DNA from: an uncultured Gammaproteobacteria bacterium
GTDB taxonomy: Bacteria; Patescibacteriota; Microgenomatia; UBA12405; JAHJSD01
NCBI GenBank assembly: GCA_964468355.1
Contig: CAYXSV010000006.1
Span: 5,452-29,451, forward strand
Length of the DNA: 24,000 bases
Direction: 5' to 3'
A program made the position numbers and the translations under genes. Below the pieces are notes generated by a model that was not told where the DNA came from, did no database searches, and saw nothing but the letters and a program-made list of their open reading frames with translations. Below, piece by piece: positions 1-19,482 of the stretch. Numbering within the stretch: position 1 is the stretch's first letter; each line of letters opens with the position of its first letter.

Positions 1-233
1 ATTCGCTCAATTGTGAAATCTAAAGTACAGTCAGGAACCACCGCCGGTGCTTTTTCAGGCGCAGTAGGAGCAACCGGCTTTTCGCGCATCTGGTAAAGCT
101 TGAAAGCACTAAACACGGCTATTAATGCTAAAACTACAGTTACGGTAATTAAGCCAAATAATTTCAATTTATTAGTTTTTCCCGATTGATTATTTGTTGA
201 ACCGGTATTTTTTTCAATATTTATTTCTTCCAT
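1..233 (-). CDS. 5' part of a membrane-anchored secreted protein (continues past the window start)
   Basis: The ATG at 233-231 overlaps the TAA stop of the upstream gene by 1 nt (TAATG). My translation is MEEINIEKNTGSTNNQSGKTNKLKLFGLITVTVVLALIAVFSAFKLYQMREKPVAPTAPEKAPAVVPDCTLDFTIER... This gives an N-terminal TM anchor, a Pro/Ala linker and then a Cys-initiated domain, the same layout as the two genes upstream. It is absent from the ORF track because it is truncated. Confidence 0.5.
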   Translation of the reverse strand, partial: MEEINIEKNTGSTNNQSGKTNKLKLFGLITVTVVLALIAVFSAFKLYQMREKPVAPTAPEKAPAVVPDCTLDFTIER

Positions 234-1525
234 TATTTCCAACCAAAATGCGGATTATAAACTTCCGCCTCAACTCTAAAGCTGTCGTATTTAGCAAAAG
301 TATAGGGTAGATAAAAACCTTTATCATTTTTATCAGTAGTTTCCATCCAACCGCCGCCGTCAACTCTGAACCGCGCTTTCGTTAAGCCGTCCGGATGACT
401 GGTTTGACCCCTGACAACCAAATAAACTTCTTTGTTATATATTTCAGAAGGATCAACCAAAAGACCGGACGCCCGGTTAACTATCAGCATCCAGTTTTTG
501 TTATATATCTCCACTTCGGTACAGTCACAGTCGTAAACCGGTGTCCCCGTCGGGGTAATTGTCGGAGTTGGAGTTTCCGTCGGTGTCGGGGTTGGGGTAT
601 CTTCCGGCCGCGTACAACAATTATCCTCATTAGGATTATCTGTACATTCAGGTTCGGGATCAGGGATAGAACAAATATAAACCGCAACACCAGGATAAGC
701 AAAGGTGCATACATGATCTCCTGAACAATCCTCATCATCCTTACAACCGATTTCACCACAGTCTAACGGAGCCGGTGTTTCCGTCGGTGTCGGTGTTTCA
801 GTTGGACGAGAACAATCCCAATCCAAATCGTCCGGGTTACATCCGGTTCCCTCCACACAATATTCACCCCTGTCACCAATAAAAACAACTATTGCCCCAT
901 CACCTTGAGGAGCATTAGTGTCAGCTTGCACCGTCGTACACCAGGAAGAAATAAAAGTTTCTTTTCCATCCTTCTTAACTTTAACTTCTTCTCCATATTT
1001 AATAGAACCGGCCGGAATTCCGTTACCCAAAAAAGAACCGTGTTTTTCATTACATGCACTATGCGAACGACCTCTGCAGTAAAATGACACCGGCCAAACA
1101 CCGGAACAATCGTTATTACAACCATGCCGGTCACACCATCCAGTACAATCGTCGCTATCATCCCCGCAAGGCGTGCCTTCTTCAACCCATGTTCCACTAC
1201 AACAGTGATACTCTTTACCCGTATCCTTATTCGTAGCACAGCAATAACCGTCATCGTAACAAGTACCGCCGGATTCGCACTGATTATCACCGCAAGTTGG
1301 TGAATCCCCATTATCGTCGTCACTTACAATTTTATAACAACCATCCCCATTATGTTCCGGACAACCTTCACAACAAGGACAACTGTTGTCTGGACAATGA
1401 CAACACCATTCAACCTTCGCTTCTTTTCTTACATCCTGCTGTTGTTTAACCAAAATAATTCCGCCTATTAAAGAGGCAGTTAACAAAATTCCGGTTATAA
1501 TTAAAATAATTGGTTTTTTGGTCAT
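233..1525 (-). CDS. Extremely Cys-rich secreted or membrane-anchored protein with PT-rich linkers and a C-terminal beta-rich domain; function unknown
   Basis: 430-aa ORF. It has an N-terminal hydrophobic anchor (IILIITGILLTASLIGGIILV) and dense Cys clusters (WCCHCPDNSCPCCEGCPEH...). Three TPTPTETP-type linkers are present. The C-terminal ~100 aa are paralogous to the C-terminus of the 170-aa neighbour. Its start overlaps the stop of that neighbour by 4 nt. Confidence 0.75.
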   Translation of the reverse strand: MTKKPIILIITGILLTASLIGGIILVKQQQDVRKEAKVEWCCHCPDNSCPCCEGCPEHNGDGCYKIVSDDDNGDSPTCGDNQCESGGTCYDDGYCCATNKDTGKEYHCCSGTWVEEGTPCGDDSDDCTGWCDRHGCNNDCSGVWPVSFYCRGRSHSACNEKHGSFLGNGIPAGSIKYGEEVKVKKDGKETFISSWCTTVQADTNAPQGDGAIVVFIGDRGEYCVEGTGCNPDDLDWDCSRPTETPTPTETPAPLDCGEIGCKDDEDCSGDHVCTFAYPGVAVYICSIPDPEPECTDNPNEDNCCTRPEDTPTPTPTETPTPTITPTGTPVYDCDCTEVEIYNKNWMLIVNRASGLLVDPSEIYNKEVYLVVRGQTSHPDGLTKARFRVDGGGWMETTDKNDKGFYLPYTFAKYDSFRVEAEVYNPHFGWK

Positions 1526-2034
1526 CGGCAGGTACCCTCCACGCAGACCTCAGCGTCAATGTCATAACACGGCTCGGTTATTTCTGAAAAGTCATAACAC
1601 CAGTTATAATAATAAAAGCGTCCGTTACCGCCGGTATTATCCTCGTCTCTTTGAAAATCGCCCCATCCCCAATCATCATCGCCGATAATTTTAAACCTGG
1701 CTTCGGTTATACCTTGTTCACAATCAGTCCAACCTTTTACCTCAAAACAAACTTCTTGAGGTTCTAACTCCTGCAATTGATTGTCGTCAATTTTATCTCC
1801 CGCATCATCAATTGCGTATAAATCAACGCAATTAAAATTGCAGTCAAGGTCAGGAGGCGGAGTTTCTGTCGGCGGGACTTCTGTCGGCGTTGTTTCCGAT
1901 TCTTCTTCACCCAATTGGTCAACCGCACTTCTTCTAGTTTCTTGGGTTTGCCTTACTAAAAATACGGCTCCGGCTAAGGAAATAAGAATTAAACCTACTA
2001 CACTGACGGATAAAATTATCTTTTTGGTATTCAT
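1522..2034 (-). CDS. Membrane-anchored secreted protein sharing a C-terminal domain with the 430-aa neighbour; function unknown
   Basis: 170-aa ORF with an N-terminal TM (IILSVSVVGLILISLAGAVFLV) and a Pro/Thr/Glu linker. A Cys-containing domain follows, with GITEARFKI and IDAEV motifs that match GLTKARFRV and VEAEV in the next gene. Confidence 0.75.
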   Translation of the reverse strand: MNTKKIILSVSVVGLILISLAGAVFLVRQTQETRRSAVDQLGEEESETTPTEVPPTETPPPDLDCNFNCVDLYAIDDAGDKIDDNQLQELEPQEVCFEVKGWTDCEQGITEARFKIIGDDDWGWGDFQRDEDNTGGNGRFYYYNWCYDFSEITEPCYDIDAEVCVEGTCR

Positions 2035-2060
2035 TATTCAAAATTTATTTTACTTACTTC

Positions 2061-2089
2061 ATAATAAACTAAAATTGAAAATCTTGCAA
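2061..2089 (-). promoter_or_regulatory. Candidate sigma70-type promoter for the 170-aa/430-aa secreted-protein genes
   Basis: On the minus strand: TTGCAA (2089-2084), a 17-nt spacer, then TATTAT (2066-2061). It lies in the only sizeable gap (2035-2095) of the minus-strand gene string. Confidence 0.3.
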
Positions 2090-2095
2090 ATTAAG

Positions 2096-3475
2096 TTACA
2101 ACCATAAAAAACCTAAAATTACAAATAAACTGCCCCCTAATAAAATAAATGTCGGTTCCCAAAAGCCGCTGTCGGGAACGCCGGATTCGGTTGACGGCTG
2201 ACTTTTTCTGGGTGGAGAAGTCGGAGCAGTTGTTTTAGTAGGCAGAGGGGTTTCAGTCGGTTCGGGCGTATTGGTCGGCTGGCTTGTCGGCGACGGCGTC
2301 ATTGTAGGAGTAGCGGTACTACCGGAAGGCGAAGCACTATAAGCCGGTTCTGAATCATCAACACTAGCAGCTAAAACAAACGTGCGTAAAAAGCTTTCCT
2401 CTTCACCGGTTTGAGGATCAATATAATTTACTTTTAAGGTATGAGGTCCGGGTGTTAAATCTTCAGGCGGCACCCACTGCCATTGATTATCAGGTCCGAT
2501 TTCTAATTCCGCCTCATACTCAACCGGTGATTCCAAATTGATCTTTAATCGTCCGCCTTGAGGACCTTCACCAAAAATTTGAGGTCTTGAAGTATTAATA
2601 GTTTCACCGTCATTAGGCGAAATAATTTTAAATCCTTTTTCCACTTCAACGTTTTCTGGAGTTTGCAGACGCGATCCACCAACACCCGGCTGAACAATTT
2701 CTTCATTTTCAAAAACAGCATTGTCGGCATTTGTAGTAAAATCGTAATCGCCGCCAAGTTTAATTAGCGGCACCGGGTCATCATTGTTGGTATATACCAC
2801 TGCTGACGCATTTCCCATCTCGCCTCCATCTACATTAATAATTTCTTTTATCTCTCCTTCCACATAATTAGCTCTTCCTATTAAATCTTCGGAATAGGCC
2901 CGAGCTAAAGGTATTACCCAATTACCTTTTTCAGTCACTAATGCCGATAATGGACTTATTTGAGAAATATCAACGTAAACAATTGATCCATTTGCCGGTT
3001 CATCCGTAGAGGTAACTATTTTTCCGGAAGCCAAATTGGCCTTTTCCGGCTCTCCCGATACCAAACCAGCCGTAGTCACCGAATAAGACCGGCCTTCGTT
3101 TCTAAATTCTTTTCCTTCCGAGTAAATAGTAAAGCTATATTTTTTTTCCGAATCTAAATTTTTAACCTCCACATAGTGAGTTGTATATTTACCCAAATTA
3201 TCTGTAGCGTCCCGATTATCAAGATGTGTTTTCGGAGATGTTTCTTCAACTTCTACATATCCAATCGCTTCTTTTTGAGTAACCCAAGAAACCGTAAACG
3301 AACTGTCAGTTATGTTAGTAATTTTAACTTCTTGAGGAAAAACTTCCTTTGATGCCCGACTAAAAAAGGCCGTCCCATTTTTCACTAAAAAAAGACCACC
3401 AACTATTCCCAAAACCAATAAAATTCCGACAATAGTAGGAATTTTTTTTTCATTCATTGCTATTTTCAATTTCAC
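2096..3475 (-). CDS. Surface protein with an N-terminal anchor/signal, an FN3-like domain, a PT-rich stalk and a C-terminal VPDSG + hydrophobic tail
   Basis: 459-aa ORF. The FN3-like signature is VKITNITDSSFTVSWVT...GYVEV...YTTHYVEVKNLDSEKKYSFTIYS. The C-terminus reads ...TPEPTETPLPTKTTAPTSPP...VPDSGFWEPTFILLGGSLFVILGFLWL. An alternative ATG at 3457 (MNEKKIPTIVG) overlaps the upstream stop by 8 nt (ATGAATGA). Confidence 0.8.
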   Translation of the reverse strand: MKLKIAMNEKKIPTIVGILLVLGIVGGLFLVKNGTAFFSRASKEVFPQEVKITNITDSSFTVSWVTQKEAIGYVEVEETSPKTHLDNRDATDNLGKYTTHYVEVKNLDSEKKYSFTIYSEGKEFRNEGRSYSVTTAGLVSGEPEKANLASGKIVTSTDEPANGSIVYVDISQISPLSALVTEKGNWVIPLARAYSEDLIGRANYVEGEIKEIINVDGGEMGNASAVVYTNNDDPVPLIKLGGDYDFTTNADNAVFENEEIVQPGVGGSRLQTPENVEVEKGFKIISPNDGETINTSRPQIFGEGPQGGRLKINLESPVEYEAELEIGPDNQWQWVPPEDLTPGPHTLKVNYIDPQTGEEESFLRTFVLAASVDDSEPAYSASPSGSTATPTMTPSPTSQPTNTPEPTETPLPTKTTAPTSPPRKSQPSTESGVPDSGFWEPTFILLGGSLFVILGFLWL

Positions 3476-12410: not shown

Positions 12411-12977
12411 CTAACTATCAGGATTATTTCTATCAATGGACCAATTAATCGGATTATTAGAAATATATGTGCGAATTTTATATAGTGATTTTTCATTACG
12501 GATAATGTGGTCATAAAATGACCGTTGCCATAATTTCCCCTCAAACGGTTTCCATCTACTATTTTTTACCTTGCTGATATATCTATTAGTCGTCATTGTT
12601 TTAAACCACTGAATTACTTTAGACAAATTAAAATCATCTTTTTGAGGACAGACACACTGGTCTGTCCCTACATTTTTTTTATTTGTAGGGGCGGACCAAT
12701 GTGTCCGCCCTGATTCAGGTGAATAAATCACTATTGCGTGAATATGGTTTGGCATTATTTGGTAACAATCAATTTTTGTGCCGTAAAAACGTTCGGGCAC
12801 CTTCAGCCACCATGTCCGAATCATTTCTCCAACTTCATTCAATCTTACTTTTCCATTTTCAATTTTCCCAAACCAACACTGTAGTTTAAACGTACAAATC
12901 GTAATATAATACCAGCCGGGCGCAGAATAATCGTAATCAGGTAACCGGTTTCTTTTTCTTGGAGATGAAATTACCAT
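12411..12977 (-). mobile_element. RayT / IS200-like HUH Y1 transposase (COG1943 family)
   Basis: 188-aa ORF with an HUH motif in IMPNHIHAIV and the catalytic Tyr region KLWQRSFYDHIIRNE. The conserved IQWFKTMTTNRYI helix is present. No second IS605-type orfB and no obvious terminal repeats are seen, consistent with a domesticated, REP-associated single-gene form. Confidence 0.85.
12646..12710. repeat. REPIN-like doublet of two GTAG-hairpins in inverted orientation, embedded in frame in the RayT-like CDS
   Basis: The plus strand reads GGACAGAC-acactg-GTCTGTCC-CTACA-ttttttttatt-TGTAG-GGGCGGAC-caatgt-GTCCGCCC. This gives two 8-bp stems with 6-nt loops. Each stem is abutted by GTAG on its own strand, and the two GTAG flanks can themselves pair (CCCTACA/TGTAGGG). 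Confidence 0.5.
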
Positions 12978-12998
12978 TAACTAATACTACAATATCAG

Positions 12999-13027
12999 TT
13001 GAAGGTGGATAAGAGTAATGTTAAAAT
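12999..13027 (+). promoter_or_regulatory. Candidate promoter for the tRNA-Val/tRNA-Ile pair
   Basis: TTGAAG (12999-13004), a 17-nt spacer, then extended -10 TGTTAAAAT (13019-13027). The tRNA begins 11 nt after the -10. Confidence 0.45.
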
Positions 13028-13037
13028 CTAATTTACG

Positions 13038-13111
13038 GGGCGGTTAGCTCAGTTGGCTAGAGCGTTTCTTTGACGTAGAAAAGGCCAGGGGTTCGAGTCC
13101 TCTACCGCCCA
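13038..13111 (+). tRNA. tRNA-Val (anticodon GAC)
   Basis: Hand-folded cloverleaf: acceptor GGGCGGT/ACCGCCC, D arm GCTC-AGTTGGCTA-GAGC, anticodon arm TTTCT-TTGACGT-AGAAA, T arm AGGGG-TTCGAGT-CCTCT, discriminator A. CCA is not encoded. Confidence 0.9.
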
Positions 13112-13174
13112 CCCACGTACCAGTACAAGCACGGTACATGGCGGGCTTGCCTCGCCGTAGTCACAGACGAAGGC

Positions 13175-13248
13175 GGGCCGTTAGCTCAGTCGGCTAGAGC
13201 GCTGTCCTGATAAGACAGAGGTCTCAGGTTCGAGTCCTGAACGGCCCA
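13175..13248 (+). tRNA. tRNA-Ile (anticodon GAU)
   Basis: Hand-folded cloverleaf: acceptor GGGCCGT/ACGGCCC, D arm GCTC-AGTCGGCTA-GAGC, anticodon arm CTGTC-CTGATAA-GACAG, T arm TCAGG-TTCGAGT-CCTGA, discriminator A. CCA is not encoded. Confidence 0.9.
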
Positions 13249-13253
13249 CATTA

Positions 13254-15696
13254 TCACTTCGTACTTTTTTCTTTATACCAAAGCTTTATTAATTCTATTC
13301 CAATTAGATCCAGAAAACCGAATATAAAAACTATCAACAGCAACCAAGGGGGCAAAGGAATAGTACTAAAAATCTGACCAAGAAAAGGAACATAGGCCAC
13401 CAGTAACATAGACATAAAACCAATTAACACCGAAAAATTAAGTGTTTTGTTTGAAAAAGGATTAAACTCCCAAATATTTCTTGACAAACTGCGGGTAGCA
13501 AAAACAAAAAGTAGAGAATCAAAAGCCAAAGACAAAAAAACAATTGTCCGCACTATTTCTATTGAATATCCCAAATTAAGAAAAAATAAAAACAGGCCGA
13601 CTAATAAAATATCACTTACTAGGCCAACAGTGAAAATAATTGTCTTCACTTCTTTGTCTAAAAGCCGTGTATTTTTATCTCTCGGCTTTTGTTTCATTAC
13701 ATCACTAGTTCCTTTTTCATAAGCTAAAGACAGTGCCGGCAAACTGTCTTCAAACAGATTTACCCACAATATTTGGACCGGCAGTATCGGTAAGGGCAGT
13801 TTAAACGCAAAACTAAATCCAATCAGCATTAATTCAGTAAAACTCCCGGAGAGCAAATAAACAATAACTTTTCTAATATTTTCAAATATAATTCTGCCCT
13901 GTTCAACCGCAGTAATTATCGTTGAAAAGTTTGAATCCATTAAAACCATGTCGGCAGTTTGTTTGGCAACATCGGTTGCTTCCCCAACAACAATTCCAAT
14001 ATCAGCTTTTTTTAAAGCTAAGGCGTCATTAACTCCGTCGCCCATCATTGCTACTGTTTTTCCATTTTTTTGCAGTGCATTAACAATTTTAATTTTTTGT
14101 TCTGGTGATATTCGATAAAAAAGTTTGATTTCCTCAACTTTACCGGCCAAAGCAGATGCGGAAATTTTTCCCAAACTCTTTCCGCTCATCACCTCCGAGG
14201 ATTTCAAAGGACCATGGTTAAGATCCAAACGGTTAATTACCGCAGCTGCTGTTTGATAATAATCTCCGGTAATAACTTTTAATTTAATTCCGGCTTTTTT
14301 AGCCAATTTTAAAGATTTTTTTACTCCTTTTCTAGCCGGATCAGAAAAAAAGACCAACCCTTGAAAATCAACGTTAACTCCCTGCCAATTGTTTTCAACC
14401 AACTTTTTCCAAACGTCTTCTTTTATTGCACCAACGGCAATTGCCCTAAAACCCTCGGTAGTTTTTTCTTGTAATTTATTTTCCCAATCATTAACTTCCT
14501 CTTTTTTTAATTGCGAGTTTTTTAATAAAATTTCCGGCGCCCCGTAAATATAAATTATTCCATTCATTTTTCCGGCAGAAAACTTCCGCTGAGCAGAAAA
14601 TGGAAGCTGTTCTTCCACCTTCTCTAACAAATCTTCTCCGCCGGTAAAACTTGAGGTCTTATCTTTAATCCAGTCCCACAAGGCAATATCTACGGCATTA
14701 ACCAAACTGTTAGCAATAACCAGGGCTTTTTCCACTTCTGCTTTGTTTTTCGTTTCAACTTCAACCACCCGCATCTTACCTTCAGTTAAAGTACCGGTTT
14801 TATCAAGACAAATTACATTTACCGCCCCCAAAGTTTCTGCGGCCAATAGTTTACGAACCAGGCCCCTTTTTTTAGATATCCTCTTCATTCCAAGCGCTAA
14901 AACCATGGTTACCGAAATTGCTAAACCTTCAGGTATAGCAGCAACAGCCAAACTGACCGATAAAGTGAAAATTTCTTCGAAACCTCGTCCCAGAATTAAT
15001 CCTTCGACCATAACAATCAAGCATAAAATGCCGATAATTAACGTCAAAGTTTTTGCTAACTTCTGCACCTGAAGTCTTAAAGGAGTAGATTCACCGACCG
15101 TTCTTTTCAGTTTTGAAGCAATCTCCCCCATTCTCGTTTTTTTACCGGTTTTAGTAACTGAAAATTCAGCTGTTCCCGAAACTACAGTCGAACCCATAAA
15201 AACCTCTTCTTCCTCCTTTTTCGCCACTGGTCTGGACTCACCGGTCAAAATTGCTTCATTAACGTAAAAATCTCTTGAGTTGATAAGTTTTCCGTCAGCG
15301 GGAATTGTTTGACCTCTTTTTACAATAACAACATCTTCCGGAACAATATCAACCGCTTCAATTTCCTGTTTCTCCCCCCCCTCTTAGAACAACGGCTTTC
15401 GGTTTAACTATCCCCCTTAAAGACTCTAGGGCCTTTTCAGACTTGTATTCTTGAAAAAAACCAAGACCGGTATTAACAACAACTGCCAAAAAAATCACCC
15501 CGGCATCAATCAGCTCTCCTAAAACTAAACTTAAAAGGCCGGCAAAAAAAAGAATATATATTAATGGAGATTTAAATTGACTTACCAAAACTGACAGCCA
15601 AACTACTTTTTGCTGACGTTCAATTTCATTAGGGCCGTACTGATCCAACCTATTCTTCACTTCCCTATTGGTTAAACCGGAAGTTTTTTTGGGCAT
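13254..15696 (-). pseudogene. P-type (E1-E2) cation-transporting ATPase, PEGL type (Ca2+/Mn2+-like, P2 group), split by a 1-nt frameshift in a G8 tract
   Basis: The N-terminal ORF 15358-15696 carries the cation-ATPase N-terminus (GLTNREVKNRLDQYGPNE plus TM1-2). The downstream ORF 13254-15248 carries LTGESRPV, AAIPEGLAISV, CLDKTGTLT and MMGDGVNDALALKKADIGI. The gap between them translates in the second frame as EKQEIEAVDIVPEDVVIVKRGQTIPADGKLINSRDFYVNEAI, the actuator domain. Removing one G from the G8 run (15374-15381) fuses everything in frame. Confidence 0.85.
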
Positions 15697-16571
15697 TTTA
15701 TTTTAGTTAATTTTTTTAGTCGCCATGACATCTTTTCTATTTCTTGCTTAGTCTTTAAATCTGTTCCCATGATTGGTTTTAATTGGGACAAAGCAGTAAA
15801 TATATCTTTATCATAACTTATTTTACCTAAATATTTCTTTCCAGCCCAATTAATAATTACTTCAGTTTTTTGCTGATCAAGATCATATTTGTTTATAACT
15901 AATCGCCAATCTAAATTAAAGTTTTTAACTACTGACAATATTCGTTTTAAATCTGACCAGCCAGTTGGTGTTGGTTCAGTAACCAACAAAACTAAATCTG
16001 TTGATTTTAATGCAGCAGTTACCGGACAACCCAACCCCGCTGGAACATCAATTAACTTGATATCAAAGGAAAGCTCTTTTTTAAACTCAATTATCTCATC
16101 TACAATCTTGCCTGACCCGGTTTGGCCAGGATAAAGCTGCCCAGAAATCAAAGGAAAACCGAAAATACTTTTCTTAAACTTAATTTCACCATTAACAACT
16201 TTTTCCATTTTAATTATTTCCGGTCCTAAAATTTCTTGACACAAACCGCAACCCTCACATAAAAAAGGATTAATTTTCAACTGATTATCGCTGCAGCTAA
16301 TTGCTCCAAACTGACAGTTAACTTTAAAATCTTGACAATTAAAATCTCTTTTAATTACTTTAGCCTTTTCAGTTAGGGAAACTTTTTTCGTTTCATCCCA
16401 ATCATCAATCCCTCCCAACCACAAATGTAAATTGGGGGCATCAACATCAGCGTCAATTGCAATTATTTCCCGGTCACGGCTTAAAAGCATTGCTAAAGCA
16501 GAAGTAAACATTGATTTACCAACTCCGCCTTTTCCAGAAGCAACAGCAATAGTTAAATCTTTTCTAGACAT
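15672..16571 (-). CDS. MinD/ParA-superfamily P-loop ATPase with an inserted ferredoxin-like Cys cluster (COG1149 type)
   Basis: 299 aa with a deviant Walker A (ASGKGGVGKS). The Cys-rich insert is CQDFKVNCQFGAISCSD...NPFLCEGCGLCQEI. A later DVPAGLGCPV motif is present. Its ATG overlaps the previous gene by 19 nt and its 3' end overlaps the ATPase start by 25 nt. Confidence 0.85.
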   Translation of the reverse strand: MSRKDLTIAVASGKGGVGKSMFTSALAMLLSRDREIIAIDADVDAPNLHLWLGGIDDWDETKKVSLTEKAKVIKRDFNCQDFKVNCQFGAISCSDNQLKINPFLCEGCGLCQEILGPEIIKMEKVVNGEIKFKKSIFGFPLISGQLYPGQTGSGKIVDEIIEFKKELSFDIKLIDVPAGLGCPVTAALKSTDLVLLVTEPTPTGWSDLKRILSVVKNFNLDWRLVINKYDLDQQKTEVIINWAGKKYLGKISYDKDIFTALSQLKPIMGTDLKTKQEIEKMSWRLKKLTKIKCPKKLPV

Positions 16572-17404
16572 TTTTCTATTTGATAACTATCTAACTCTAA
16601 TAATTTCTTTTGGGTATAAGCTTTAATTATATTTGAACTATGAGGAATTTCAGCGATTATTTTCTCCTTATCAAAATAATCTTTGATTAATTTTAAATTA
16701 CCTAAATCACTTTGGTTAACTATTATTCGATAGTCCAATCCCAGTTTTTTAATAACTTCAATGATTACACCCAAATCATGTTGCCCCAAGGGCGTTGGCT
16801 CAGTAACCGCAATTGCTAAATCAACTTCCAACAGGGCATTAATTACGCTACAATGAGTTCCAGGAGCAGTATCAATAATTATTTTTTCCGCCCCAAATTG
16901 TTTGGCTTTTTCATAAGCATGCTTTTTTAACTGGCCGACAATAGGTCCTGTTTCCTCAACCCCAACCTCGGTTATTCCAGTAACTAAAAGTAAATTAGAA
17001 TAAATTTGGTTTTCATAAAAATGTGCTGTTAATTTTTTTTTGGGTTTTATTGCCCCATAGGGACAAATTTCCCAGCACAAGCCGCAACTAGCACACAATT
17101 CCGGGAAAAACTTCGGGTACTGACCCACCGGGGCAAAAATAGCATTAAAGCGACACTTCTGCCCACACAAACCACACTTTTTACATTTATTTTTAATTAA
17201 ATGAGGGTAGTTAGCGTAAATTTGTTTGCTCTCTTTTTTCAAATTCCGATTAACTAGAAGATGGTCGTTAGGGCACTCAACATCAGCATCAACAAGAACA
17301 ACTTTTTCCTTTTTAGCTATTTGGTTAGCTAATAAAATTGAAACCGTTGATTTACCCACTCCGCCTTTACCCCCGGTAACTGCAATTTGCTTAATTTTAC
17401 TCAT
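16553..17404 (-). CDS. MinD/ParA-superfamily P-loop ATPase with inserted 2x[4Fe-4S] ferredoxin motifs (COG1149 type)
   Basis: 283 aa with Walker A TGGKGGVGKST. It has two CxxCxxCxxxC(P) motifs (CKKCGLCGQKC; CASCGLCWEICP) and DTAPGTHCSV. Its ATG overlaps the CDF stop by 8 nt (ATGAGTAA). Confidence 0.85.
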   Translation of the reverse strand: MSKIKQIAVTGGKGGVGKSTVSILLANQIAKKEKVVLVDADVECPNDHLLVNRNLKKESKQIYANYPHLIKNKCKKCGLCGQKCRFNAIFAPVGQYPKFFPELCASCGLCWEICPYGAIKPKKKLTAHFYENQIYSNLLLVTGITEVGVEETGPIVGQLKKHAYEKAKQFGAEKIIIDTAPGTHCSVINALLEVDLAIAVTEPTPLGQHDLGVIIEVIKKLGLDYRIIVNQSDLGNLKLIKDYFDKEKIIAEIPHSSNIIKAYTQKKLLELDSYQIEKCLEKI

Positions 17405-18632
17405 TTCGCTTAGTTGGCTGAGAAAGCTCTTTTAATTCTCTTTGCGTAAATAAATTTATTACCTGCAAACCTGTATTTTCATCTGCCTGATAAATATCAA
17501 TCAGATAATCTCTTAAAGTGTGAAAAGATATTTCCCCAATTTCTTTTGTAATTAAAGTATCAACTTGCTGTTTGTTGATTAATTTCACCACTGCTAAACC
17601 AACTCTGACTTTTTTATTCACATAAGGATTTTTAATTATATAGCTTCCTTTAATTTTGTCCCCCTCTAAGTTGACAAACAAAAAGTAAGGGGCTCGTCCA
17701 AACTTGTTAGATAAAAAAGAATTTAGTCCTTGATCTTCTTCTATCGGCAAAACTAAATGTCTGAACTCATCAACATATGGCTCCACATGCACTATAAAAG
17801 AACTAACACCATCGAAATTATTTTTTACTTTCTCTTCAACTTGGTCCGCTAATTGATGGCTTTGTTTAACTTTCAGTTTCTTACTGACCCCAACTTTAGT
17901 TTGACCAAAAAGGTAAGGCCCGGATTTTCTTAGCTTTAAATCAAACGCTTCTTTTACCCCGGGAACGGATTCAACAACAGCAATAACTTTTTGCTTTACC
18001 TCTTCGTCAGGACTAACATCCATTAATCCTAGAATTCCCTCTCTAATCGTTTCCAAGCCGATTTTAAAAATTAAACCGGAAACTAGAAGAGTAATTATTC
18101 CTTCTACATAAGGTATTTGGTTTACGGTTGCTAGAGTACCCAAAAAGACTGCGGAAGAAGTAATAAGATGGGTTCGATTTTCTTTACCCAAAGAAATTAA
18201 ACTTTGAGAATTAATTTCTTTGCCAACTTTTATTTCGTAACGGCCAAAAAAGAAAAGGACTGCCGCATCAACTAATGATATTCCCAAAGCAAAAAAAGGT
18301 AGTTCAATAACGCCTAGCTTTTGCAATCGAGAATATCCTTGAAAAAACATTTGAATAAATGCGTAAAAAATTAACAAAGAAATAAACAGTGTCGCTAAAC
18401 TTTCTGCTTTGTAATAACCATATGAAAATTTCTCATCCGGATCTTTTTGAGCCATTTTCAATCCAAGCCAAGAAGCAAAAATAGTCAGCAAATCAAAAAC
18501 ACTGTGTAAAGCGTCAGAAATTAAAACAATACTGCCGGAAAGTAAACCAATGACCACCTTAGATAGGGCTAAAAACCCTTCTAATCCAGCCGCTGTTTCC
18601 GTTAATCGTTGACCCTTTTTTAAATCATTCAC
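17397..18632 (-). CDS. Cation diffusion facilitator (CDF) transporter fused to a C-terminal NifX/NifB-C-like (dinitrogenase FeMo-cofactor-binding family) domain
   Basis: Six TMs with the CDF TM2 motif SDALHSVFD, followed by the cytoplasmic CDF domain (VIAVVESVPGVKEAFDLKLRKSGPY...FIVHVEP). About 120 aa then resemble COG1433 (LVLPIEEDQGLNSFLSNKFGRAPYFLFVNLEG...VGLAVVKLINKQQVDTLITKEIG). The ORF track starts at GTG 18674. I prefer GTG 18632, which is preceded by AAGGAG and overlaps the upstream stop by 8 nt. Confidence 0.8.
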   Translation of the reverse strand: MNDLKKGQRLTETAAGLEGFLALSKVVIGLLSGSIVLISDALHSVFDLLTIFASWLGLKMAQKDPDEKFSYGYYKAESLATLFISLLIFYAFIQMFFQGYSRLQKLGVIELPFFALGISLVDAAVLFFFGRYEIKVGKEINSQSLISLGKENRTHLITSSAVFLGTLATVNQIPYVEGIITLLVSGLIFKIGLETIREGILGLMDVSPDEEVKQKVIAVVESVPGVKEAFDLKLRKSGPYLFGQTKVGVSKKLKVKQSHQLADQVEEKVKNNFDGVSSFIVHVEPYVDEFRHLVLPIEEDQGLNSFLSNKFGRAPYFLFVNLEGDKIKGSYIIKNPYVNKKVRVGLAVVKLINKQQVDTLITKEIGEISFHTLRDYLIDIYQADENTGLQVINLFTQRELKELSQPTKRNE

Positions 18633-18945
18633 TTCGATACTCCTTAATAATTTGATCAACTGACTGCCTTTCACCTTTGGCTACTGCCTGAATACCACTT
18701 GACTCTAATGCTTGTAAAGCATTAGGACCAAAATTGCCGGCGATGACTTTTTCTACCTCATTGTCGGCAATCAATTGGGCAGCAACAATACCAGCACCCC
18801 GTTGGCTATTTTCACCAGAATTTGAAATAACCTTAACATCATCGGGATTATTTAAATCCACAATTTGGAAAAAGGGACATCTTCCAAAACGAGAGTCAAC
18901 AAAATTTGTCTTTTTTTCGCCGTCTGCAGCAATAGCAATCTTCAT
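18625..18945 (-). CDS. NifX/NifB-C-like small protein (COG1433, dinitrogenase iron-molybdenum cofactor domain family)
   Basis: 106 aa. MKIAIAADGEKKTNFVDSRFGRCPFFQIVDL...GAGIVAAQLIADNEVEKVIAGNFGPNALQALESSGIQ is the typical pattern of this family. It has an ATGA overlap with the DUF134 gene. Confidence 0.85.
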   Translation of the reverse strand: MKIAIAADGEKKTNFVDSRFGRCPFFQIVDLNNPDDVKVISNSGENSQRGAGIVAAQLIADNEVEKVIAGNFGPNALQALESSGIQAVAKGERQSVDQIIKEYRSE

Positions 18946-19445
18946 CTTTTTCTAATCAGCTGACTGCCACATTTTGGGCAAACTTGCTGAAAACAAGGTA
19001 TTCCTAGTTTATGAACTTCTTGATAATCACATTCCGGGTTTGGGCAACTACAATATCCACCTGGACCTGCTTGTAAGGGGCCTCCTTTTCTTCCTCGGCC
19101 CTGTCCACTTCCTGGTCTACGCCCTCTCCCTGGTCTTCCAGAACCGTCACCTTGTGCCACTTTATTTTCACCTCCTTTCACTCTTATTGCTTGTCCTAAT
19201 ATTAATCCTTTAGCAACTTTTTTTCTAGCCGAGGTCAAAATACGCTGAATTGTGCTTTGTGAAACAGCCATTTTTTGAGCCGCGTCTTCTTGGCTTTTTT
19301 CTTGATAATCAACTAAACGAAGCACCTCTAGTTCATCAAAATTTAAATTAACTTCTTTTAAATGCGCTAAAGGAACATTGATCGGCTTAAAATAAGTTAT
19401 CTCTGGTATAAAATTAACCCGCCTGAGTCTTTTTGGTCTAGTCAT
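18942..19445 (-). CDS. DUF134/UPF0251 (COG1342) predicted DNA-binding protein with a Gly/Arg-rich linker and a C-terminal zinc-ribbon-like extension
   Basis: 167 aa. The N-terminus RLRRVNFIPEITYFKP...FDELEVLRLVDYQEKSQEDAAQKMAVSQSTIQRILTSARKKVAKGLILGQAI matches DUF134 with a sigma-70 region 4-like HTH. It is followed by GDGSGRPGRGRRPGSGQGRGRKGGP and CSCPNPEC...CPKCG. Confidence 0.8.
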   Translation of the reverse strand: MTRPKRLRRVNFIPEITYFKPINVPLAHLKEVNLNFDELEVLRLVDYQEKSQEDAAQKMAVSQSTIQRILTSARKKVAKGLILGQAIRVKGGENKVAQGDGSGRPGRGRRPGSGQGRGRKGGPLQAGPGGYCSCPNPECDYQEVHKLGIPCFQQVCPKCGSQLIRKR

Positions 19446-19453
19446 ATGTTATG

Positions 19454-19482
19454 AATATATACCCAAAACCACTATTTGTCAA
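19454..19482 (-). promoter_or_regulatory. Near-consensus sigma70-type promoter of the DUF134-NifX-CDF-MinD-MinD-ATPase operon; leaderless geometry
   Basis: On the minus strand: TTGACA (19482-19477), a 17-nt spacer, TATATT (19459-19454), then 8 nt to the ATG at 19445. Confidence 0.55.

Follow-up and report, generated by a model that had tools for sequence, protein, structure and literature searches.

Introduction

Genes for DUF134 proteins, NifX-like proteins and MinD-type ATPases with a ferredoxin insert make up an ORP-type set that is common in anaerobes and has had no established function since its description in Desulfovibrio, where Orp7 may be a DUF134 protein. Here, such a set was analysed in a 24-kb stretch of DNA (contig CAYXSV010000006.1 of assembly GCA_964468355.1; "the window" denotes the whole 24,000 nucleotides), where it shares an operon with a transporter from the family of cation diffusion facilitators (CDF) that is fused to a NifX-like domain, and with a P-type ATPase. 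The window equals, in reverse complement, part of the 53.6-kb JGI contig ML8_10000280. The closest named relatives of this CDF in homologue searches are Microgenomates and Shapirobacteria metagenome-assembled genomes (MAGs), from which an origin in the candidate phyla radiation is likely.

In Desulfovibrio vulgaris, Orp3 and Orp4 are MinD-like paralogues that each carry two ferredoxin motifs, Orp5 and Orp8 are NifX-fold proteins, and Orp9 (MrpORP) is an Mrp ATPase fused to a NifX-fold domain (PMC6345978, PMC8359166). Orp3, Orp4 and Orp8 co-purify, and MrpORP supplies them with Fe-S clusters (PMC6345978). Expression of the complex, which is still without an established function, is confined to low redox potential (PMC6345978, PMC8359166); a role in cell division has been proposed, MrpORP is polar, and Orp3 and Orp4 possess MinD-like C-terminal amphipathic helices (PMC6345978). 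The inorganic ligands that NifX-fold proteins bind non-covalently comprise a Mo-Cu-S cluster in Orp8 homologues, [3Fe-4S] in MrpORP, thioferrate in IssA and NifB-co/FeMo-co in NifX/NafY (PMC6345978, PMC5524996). An earlier note, made from the sequence of the window alone, had called the function of its module unassigned. An established function is indeed still absent, but published work does not leave the module without any assignment, since it corresponds to the Desulfovibrio ORP complex (PMC6345978, PMC8359166).

The CDF-NifX fusion and the free NifX-like protein

The CDF-NifX fusion (17397..18632, minus strand) is recognised by Pfam as Cation_efflux (135 bits), ZT_dimer (66 bits) and Nitro_FeMo-Co (44 bits), and reaches 201 bits against TIGR01297 in NCBIfam, where the cut-off is 82. 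Residues H43 and D47 in transmembrane helix TM2 and E151 and H155 in TM5 align to the transport-site residues D45, D49, H153 and D157 of YiiP and are invariant in the Microgenomates alignment; judged from this alignment, the transport site is intact. Position 155, a His in Microgenomates, is usually Asp across the wider family. The best partial equivalog matches in NCBIfam were MamB, MamM, MntE and FieF, not ZitB, and the protein is therefore placed closest to the Fe/Mn-type CDFs, a placement by which its substrate is not fixed. Since all equivalog scores were far under their cut-offs, CDF-NifX is best regarded as a subfamily of its own. Three of the five residues that form the metal site in the cytoplasmic C-terminal domain (CTD) of YiiP are retained (H259, H282 and E284).

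An AlphaFold model of the fusion, built from 58 sequences, gave a mean pLDDT of 87. In this model, residues 1-290 superpose on YiiP (TMt 0.74-0.76), whereas the final 120 residues resemble PH0822, a NifX-fold protein (TMt 0.86), and form a separate domain after the CTD. No solved structure joining a CDF and a NifX fold was found in the structure comparison, and a literature search found no paper describing a CDF-NifX fusion.

The free NifX-like protein (18625..18945, minus strand; Nitro_FeMo-Co, COG1433; 106 aa) scores 75 bits with PF02579 and matches the Di-Nase part of the MrpORP model in NCBIfam. With this family recognised in both proteins, the occurrence of the COG1433 fold once free and once fused to a CDF, as proposed in the earlier note, is upheld. 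The free protein has a single cysteine, in the motif FGRCPFF, and ends right after the fold; the fused domain is without cysteine and ends 5-10 residues past the fold. A membership of either unit in the IssA group was considered and rejected, as neither bears the cationic tail.

Distribution and gene neighbourhood of the fusion

A separate homologue search gave more than 120 matches at 50-100% identity that carry all three Pfam domains. An exhaustive search over 1.84 billion representatives returned 252 proteins at E <= 1e-30, and 99 of the best 150 representatives (50% identity clusters) are full-length fusions, so that at least 99 cluster representatives bear this architecture. Its members, DPANN archaea among them, are found in Microgenomates, Nealsonbacteria, Aenigmatarchaeota, Nanoarchaeia, a spirochaete MAG and Thermodesulfobacteriota.

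Neighbourhoods were counted over non-redundant fusion loci (designated by L numbers), and the denominators are the informative loci, i.e. those with enough flanking sequence. Two MinD-type genes lie within 6 kb of the fusion at 21 of 26 loci. A free NifX gene is near the fusion at 29/40 loci, the six-cysteine (Cys6) module of DUF134 proteins at 32/40 and the helix-turn-helix (HTH) part of DUF134 at 24/40, and an orthologue of the P2A-type ATPase of the window at 3/18. Among 74 control loci, consisting of plain CDFs returned by a scan of genome contigs, none had module genes within 10 kb (0/74). The usual order is DUF134 (or just its Cys6 part as a small open reading frame, ORF), NifX, CDF-NifX, MinD1 and MinD2, and this five-gene core is common to many bacteria of the candidate phyla radiation (CPR) and occurs in DPANN archaea.

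The arrangement can thus not be considered novel to this contig, as the earlier note had held, since fusion and module are widespread in CPR and DPANN genomes. That the adjacency to transporters might be unique to this contig had been set beforehand as a refutation, and for the CDF the opposite was found, with the MinD pair at 21/26 fusion loci and at none of the controls. Of the two cation transporters to which the conserved trio was said to be wired, the CDF is conserved in that position, whereas the P-type ATPase is limited to the few loci given above and is frameshifted here.

Further transporters join the module in other lineages, namely ZIP, ArsP-like, CPH-type P1B ATPase and P2A ATPase. 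Beyond Microgenomates, the fusion stands among NifX, two MinD/ferredoxin genes, DUF134, sometimes DUF5320, and other transporters: a ZIP transporter is found in the archaeal clusters L131 and L134 and in L135, a complete Nealsonbacteria genome, and two ArsP_1 permease halves in the archaeal cluster L133. A CPH-type P1B ATPase lies directly upstream of DUF134 in L113. Coupling of the DUF134/NifX/MinD-ferredoxin module to cation transport is supported by this gene content.

A thioredoxin and a protein of about 390 aa are recurrent members of these clusters (L129 9926-11379, also L126, L127, L124, L088, L095, L134, L135 and L137). In the latter protein, a signal sequence is combined with a thioredoxin-like domain bearing CxxC and with a membrane domain of several helices, in which NPC and CSxG motifs occur, and in L088 and L135 it sits between the two MinD genes. 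Searches of Pfam with its 391-aa form and with 407-aa and 123-aa neighbours gave nothing above the cut-offs, with a weak Glutaredoxin match for the 391-aa protein. Neither the thioredoxin nor the 391-aa protein was found elsewhere in the window.

In the archaeal locus L138 (521-5813), CDF-NifX is located between genes for desulfoferrodoxin/superoxide reductase and peroxiredoxin on one side and NfeD/Band_7 and a free NifX on the opposite side, and MinD genes are absent there. This context hints at a link to oxidative or iron stress.

Operon layout and promoter

The operon lies on the minus strand between 19445 and 13254, where seven ORFs are present when the P-type ATPase is counted as two pieces. 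Consecutive genes overlap by 4 nt (DUF134/NifX), 8 nt (NifX/CDF, with GTG 18632 as start), 8 nt (CDF/MinD1), 19 nt (MinD1/MinD2) and 25 nt (MinD2/ATPase), and the overlap lengths and shared strand reported in the earlier note were reproduced from the ORF coordinates. The GTG at 18632 that it preferred as CDF start is also the start called by JGI, coincides with the starts of homologues and is preceded by AAGGAG 8-13 nt upstream, the sole clear Shine-Dalgarno sequence of the operon. Every family that had been recognised by motif scored above its curated cut-off in Pfam, and NCBIfam agrees. As regards the six same-strand genes that had been described, strand and coordinates hold, but the P-type ATPase is not one ORF, being split by a G8 tract. 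The overlaps had also been taken to imply one translationally coupled unit. They are compatible with an operon, but they are no special evidence of coupling because overlapping junctions are normal in this genome: 5 of the 12 other same-strand junctions overlap and 3 more have gaps of 0-4 nt.

The sigma-70-type promoter that had been noticed as near-consensus was found at 19454..19482 (minus strand), with TTGACA at 19482-19477, a 17-nt spacer and TATATT at 19459-19454. It scores 11/12 and is the top match of a promoter scan in the 8-kb region, where 25 promoter-like sites were counted against 21.2 in shuffles, i.e. no excess. Its credibility comes not from the scan score but from its conserved position, since TTGAC(A/T) and a -10 region recur at the equivalent location of 10 or more orthologous loci. 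The -10 hexamer ends 8 nt before the DUF134 ATG at 19445, and by this spacing the mRNA is predicted to be leaderless or nearly so. An operon of six genes behind one promoter is real.

At the 3' end, 4 nt separate the ATPase stop codon from convergent tRNA-Val(GAC) and tRNA-Ile(GAT) genes, beyond which a 188-aa Y1-transposase-like ORF is located, tRNAs and ORF together lying in 12411-13249. In relatives the thioredoxin pair is found here instead, so a local rearrangement seems to have taken place. The G+C content is about 0.41-0.43 in positions 1-3000 of the window versus 0.30-0.37 across most of it.

The DUF134 protein and a conserved promoter element

The first gene (18942..19445, minus strand) encodes a DUF134/UPF0251 protein of 167 aa, identified in Pfam by PF02001 (94.3 bits, cut-off 27) and Sigma70_r4 (34 bits). 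It is composed of an N-terminal sigma-70 region-4-like HTH, an Arg/Gly-rich linker (residues ~100-130) and a C-terminal Cys6 module (C132, C134, C139, C151, C156 and C159; CxC-x4-C...C-x4-C-x2-C) that is conserved in homologues. When the Arg/Gly and Cys6 tail was searched against Pfam at E up to 10, just a weak match to Zn_ribbon_Top1 was returned and none to DUF5320, though the tail resembles the DUF5320 N-terminus in L134. No paper on the function of DUF134/UPF0251 was found in the literature search.

The Arg/Gly and Cys6 stretch, residues 96-167 in the window protein (18945-19160), is elsewhere a free ORF of 45-56 aa at many Microgenomates loci, standing directly upstream of the NifX or CDF-NifX gene (for example 56 aa at L007 9794-9964), and in L106 the HTH half of DUF134 is encoded divergently. 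These free ORFs and the divergent HTH half let the Cys6 module appear as a component in its own right. The Arg/Gly-rich part of the Cys6 peptides and of DUF134 recalls DUF5320 and the cationic tail of IssA.

An exact 13-mer, GGGTATATATTCA (19464-19452, minus strand), overlaps the -10 hexamer and the likely transcription start. It occurs in one copy per locus, always just upstream of the DUF134 gene, at 15 loci that represent about ten independent lineages, and not once in 1.16 Mb of control loci. The 13-mer is an imperfect left-half variant of the palindrome (A)TGAATATATATTCA(T), and the perfect palindrome TGAATATATATTCA is found at the equivalent place in L097, L106/7, L113, L118 and the archaeal L134; in L134 it lies upstream of DUF5320-DUF134 and a second near-copy follows 11 nt downstream. 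Versions with 1-2 mismatches stand beside the first cluster gene in L133 (archaeal) and L135 (Nealsonbacteria), and at more distant loci the element comes directly after a TTGACA-17-TATAAT promoter. Its positions in other loci include L006 9442, L090 251, L124 9452, L118 1319 and L134 7868. Matches with up to 2 mismatches are frequent by chance (43 in the controls) and weight is put only on exact and position-specific matches. A search of the window for a second copy, as a sign of a regulon, gave only a chance-level 2-mismatch match at 3182-3194.

The conserved palindromic promoter element, present in bacterial and archaeal loci alike, is a new observation. It is probably the operator of DUF134, placed so as to repress. 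The window-type sequence TTGGGTATATATTCAT would be the target for DNA binding, with a candidate operator size of 14-16 bp. In the archaeal loci, the TATATA core of the element could partly be a TATA box.

The MinD-type ATPases

MinD1 (16553..17404, minus strand, 283 aa, COG1149) matches CbiA/ParA and Fer4 in Pfam and has the deviant Walker A motif GKGGVGKST. Its ferredoxin insert holds two complete CxxCxxCxxxC motifs, all eight cysteines of which are invariant in 22 homologues, as are C44 and H184-C185. MinD2 (15672..16571, minus strand, 299 aa; Walker A GKGGVGKSM) is a paralogue about 30% identical to MinD1, in which Pfam finds CbiA/ParA and not Fer4, and it ends in a basic tail, KMSWRLKKLTKIKCPKK. 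The insert of MinD2 is degenerate, three of the eight ferredoxin cysteines being lost (D76, F82 and L115) while C86, C105, C108 and C111 remain. All eight cysteines are kept in 15 of 20 MinD2 homologues and not in the clade of the window, in which C93 has been gained.

In the standard ligand-swap geometry of 2x[4Fe-4S] ferredoxins, the four remaining cysteines can hold one cluster, the other being lost. A clade-specific loss of one [4Fe-4S] site from MinD2 may be inferred from this, and MinD1 and MinD2 together are predicted to have ligands for three [4Fe-4S] clusters. Of the two COG1149 paralogues with inserted 4Fe-4S motifs in the earlier note, both the paralogy and the double-cluster insert of MinD1 are borne out, but a full insert in MinD2 is not.

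The P-type ATPase

The last gene (13254..15696, minus strand) encodes a P2A-type (PMR1/SPCA/LMCA1-like) ATPase that is interrupted in this assembly. Cation_ATPase_N, E1-E2_ATPase, Hydrolase and Cation_ATPase_C are above cut-off in Pfam, the motifs DKTGT, PEGL, TGD and GDGVND are present, with PEGL in the helix AAIPEGLA, and ion site II retains its M4 Glu and its M6 Asn/Asp. The PDB entries that match best are SPCA1 from human and LMCA1 from Listeria, and in NCBIfam the best match is the PMR1-type model TIGR01522, with 532.8 bits and thus below its cut-off of 798.3. A P1B heavy-metal pump was rejected on the grounds of PEGL and not CPx/SPC in the helix, the lack of an HMA domain and the best matches. 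The motif and family of the PEGL-type ATPase noted earlier are therefore confirmed, but the gene is not intact and its class is P2A (Ca/Mn-type), not the transition-metal class P1B.

A G8 homopolymer on the coding strand (15374..15381, minus strand; plus-strand C8) splits the gene into a 112-aa N-terminal ORF (15358-15696) and a 664-aa ORF in another frame (13254-15248), and deletion of one G restores the reading frame VLRGGEKQEIEAVDIVPEDVVIVKRGQTIPADG...LTGES. The window shares 99.96-100% identity with four further assemblies from its population. G8 is found in L001 (this contig) and L003, and G7 with an intact 813-aa gene in L002 (9726-12167) and L004; the tract length is the sole indel among these near-clonal assemblies over up to 13.4 kb of shared sequence. 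The window contains no second G/C homopolymer of 7 or more, and the ATPase orthologues of relatives are without such a run there. Either an on/off site prone to slippage or an error in assembling the homopolymer could account for the difference. A programmed frameshift was set aside, as no supporting feature was found and, with G7 alleles in existence, length variation or assembly error is the simpler explanation.

The orthologues at 3 of 18 informative fusion loci are confined to a shallow clade. In L126 (CDF 81% identical) and L127 (69%) the pump follows MinD2 with overlaps of 8 and 14 nt and is itself followed by the thioredoxin and 391-aa pair; at a CDF identity of 66% (L129/L130) it is absent and this pair directly follows MinD2. 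In L137 (2406-8886), a full-length orthologue, 53% identical, lies immediately upstream of DUF134 among the flanking genes of the window and with no CDF-NifX. On the evidence of L137, the P2A pump and CDF-NifX may be alternatives in this clade.

The interpretation that we prefer is a clade-specific added efflux pump of Ca2+/Mn2+-type, variably intact through the G7/G8 tract. Its place in the operon may instead be a by-product of genome compaction and local rearrangement, with no functional tie, which we consider quite possible at somewhat less than even odds. The restriction to so few fusion loci, the Ca/Mn-type class, overlapping junctions as the norm in this genome, the rearranged 3' end, where the tRNAs and the Y1-transposase-like gene replace the thioredoxin pair, and the frameshift in 2/4 assemblies all fit such a coincidence. 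It is opposed by orthologues (53-68% identical) that adjoin the module in two arrangements, downstream of MinD2 with overlaps of 8-25 nt (window, L126, L127) and upstream of DUF134 (L137, without CDF-NifX), and by the unrelated P1B ATPase that occupies the upstream position in L113. Two arrangements within one clade suggest more than a single accident, but may still reflect local synteny.

Discussion

We consider the operon to encode an ORP-type metal/iron-sulfur module with a link to divalent-metal efflux at the membrane, and with its first gene probably serving as autoregulator, a reading to which we assign a probability of about 0.5. By analogy to Orp3-Orp4-Orp8, MinD1 and MinD2 would form an ATP-dependent heterodimer that binds the free NifX. 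The NifX-fold domains would hold inorganic metal-sulfide species non-covalently, as the few or absent cysteines in IssA and in the NifX units of the window imply for anionic species. One may envisage that the soluble ATPase/NifX complex loads or unloads metal-sulfide species and docks on the NifX-like domain of the CDF dimer, and that the CDF then exports metal freed from the metal-sulfide pool, for which Fe2+, Mn2+ or some other thiophilic divalent ion is the likeliest candidate. Alternatively, in this third step, the loading state of the NifX-like domain would gate export by the CDF. DUF134 would bind the palindromic element over the promoter and respond via its Cys6 module.

Several observations weigh against coupling to efflux. 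The metal specificity is not readable from sequence, with position 155 differing between Microgenomates (His) and the wider family (Asp), and the fused NifX domain carries no cysteine. Each half can occur without the other: the fusion has no module genes beside it in L011 and L114-116, has just a Cys6 peptide in L007, L089, L100, L104 and L108, and is without MinD also in L138, and the NifX/MinD module occurs without any CDF in L136, L137 and Desulfovibrio. The ZIP importers found in these clusters are as compatible with supply as with detoxification. Finally, the ORP complex has been proposed to serve cell division rather than metal handling (PMC6345978).

The occurrence of the fusion without MinD genes in several genomes also favours a different division of labour, in which the NifX-like domain of the CDF is an allosteric sensor of Fe-S or metal-sulfide status that gates ordinary Fe2+/Mn2+/Zn2+ efflux, while the MinD and NifX proteins are general Fe-S carriers for apoproteins and share the operon through a common signal. 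The cytoplasmic domains of CDFs are known regulatory metal sensors, and H259, H282 and E284 of the YiiP CTD site are kept here. Proteins of the MrpORP type pass clusters to apoproteins (PMC6345978). Yet gene order and overlaps are kept across lineages about 50% identical, and the fusion is embedded between the NifX and MinD genes in bacteria and archaea; such conserved embedding argues for more than shared regulation, and we regard the sensor as unlikely, though one to be reckoned with. Lower still, and very doubtful, we place a role in spatial organisation or cell division for the MinD-like ATPases, with CDF-NifX mainly as a tether and transport secondary. Such positioning would be in line with the putative cell division role of the ORP complex, the polar MrpORP and the amphipathic helices of Orp3/Orp4 (PMC6345978), and with the basic tail of MinD2. 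A mere anchor would have no need of invariant transport-site residues, the recurrence of ZIP, ArsP-like and P-type transporters in the clusters points to ions, and the ORP role in cell division is itself only putative.

The ZIP importers of L131, L134 and L135 speak for supply, with a cluster that imports and assembles instead of detoxifying. ZIP, or a different route in the clade of the window, would import metal, the ATPases and NifX would build or store a metal-sulfide cofactor, and CDF-NifX would vent excess metal or deliver metal to an extracytoplasmic partner, such as a surface enzyme or in the direction of a host cell. Storage of Fe and S by a NifX-fold protein is exemplified by IssA (PMC5524996), and the thioredoxin and CxxC membrane protein recur in the neighbourhood. 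The CDFs characterised so far carry metal out of the cytoplasm, however, the free NifX is without the IssA tail and no ZIP is present in the window, which makes supply improbable in our judgement. Coupling of the ORP-type module to efflux is accordingly the reading that we retain, and as metal handling it is supported, not proven, by the sequence comparisons. It can be extended, speculatively and with a rather small chance of being right, to a single ATP- and redox-driven machine in which the fusion, the free NifX and the MinD/ferredoxin pair hand metal-sulfide species or stripped metal directly to a membrane transporter. This would be an undescribed metallocluster-coupled system of CPR and DPANN, in which DUF134 would act as a repressor that senses a cluster or metal and has an operator common to two domains of life.

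The fusion to an Fe/Mn-type CDF in at least 99 sequence clusters, together with the other transporters, suggests that the ORP-type set handles a transportable divalent metal, and very small bacterial and archaeal genomes carry the fusion within the module. The findings bear on metal management by CPR and DPANN organisms in sulfidic habitats. CPR and DPANN lack many known detoxification transporters, and few CPR genomes have a CDF (PMC6744442).

Comparison with known systems

By its family content, the core of the window belongs to the ORP type of module known from the Orp3/4/8 complex of Desulfovibrio. The two MinD-type ATPases with ferredoxin motifs correspond to Orp3/Orp4 and the single-domain NifX-fold protein to Orp5/Orp8. 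Like Orp9, the window has a larger protein with a NifX-fold domain attached, and an anaerobe-type distribution with suspected archaeal links is shared (PMC6345978, PMC8359166). In contrast, an Orp9 of the Mrp/NBP35 type is absent from the window, where a MrpORP was rejected because partial matches to NF041136 reached 37-42 bits against a cut-off of 450, and the NifX-fold domain is fused to a CDF transporter instead of an Mrp ATPase. MinD2 appears to have lost one cluster. The window has one operon while Desulfovibrio has two divergent ones, and in place of a sigma-54 promoter and OrpR it has a sigma-70-type promoter and DUF134; no AAA+ enhancer-binding protein was found among the window ORFs.

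The transporter shares with FieF/YiiP and MamB/MamM the six-helix Cation_efflux domain, the ZT_dimer CTD and a four-residue transport site at the YiiP positions. It differs from them by the extra 120-residue NifX-fold domain after the CTD, and from FieF/YiiP by a site composition of H-D/E-H as compared to D-D/H-D. The pump shares best PDB and NCBIfam matches, the DKTGT/PEGL/TGD/GDGVND motifs and the ion site II residues with PMR1/SPCA1 and LMCA1, but it is shorter (813 aa), under the PMR1-type cut-off and frameshifted here, and its substrate class is assigned by homology only.

The NifX units have the globular IPR003731/PF02579 fold of IssA, the thioferrate store of Pyrococcus furiosus (PMC5524996). 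They are without its 70-residue cationic, Gly/aromatic-rich tail, for which an Arg/Gly-rich stretch is found instead in DUF134 and in the free Cys6 peptides of related loci. NifX, NafY and the NifB C-terminal domain belong to the same Pfam family, Nitro_FeMo-Co, and hold complex Fe-S precursors during transfer. The closest solved relatives of the window units are, in contrast, non-nif proteins of the MTH1175/PH0822/TM type, and a nif gene context (nifB, nifEN, nifHDK) was found neither in the 24 kb of the window nor next to related loci. The ORP-type core is thus known from other organisms, and the window is set apart from the described systems by the transporter fusion and by DUF134 with a defined promoter element.

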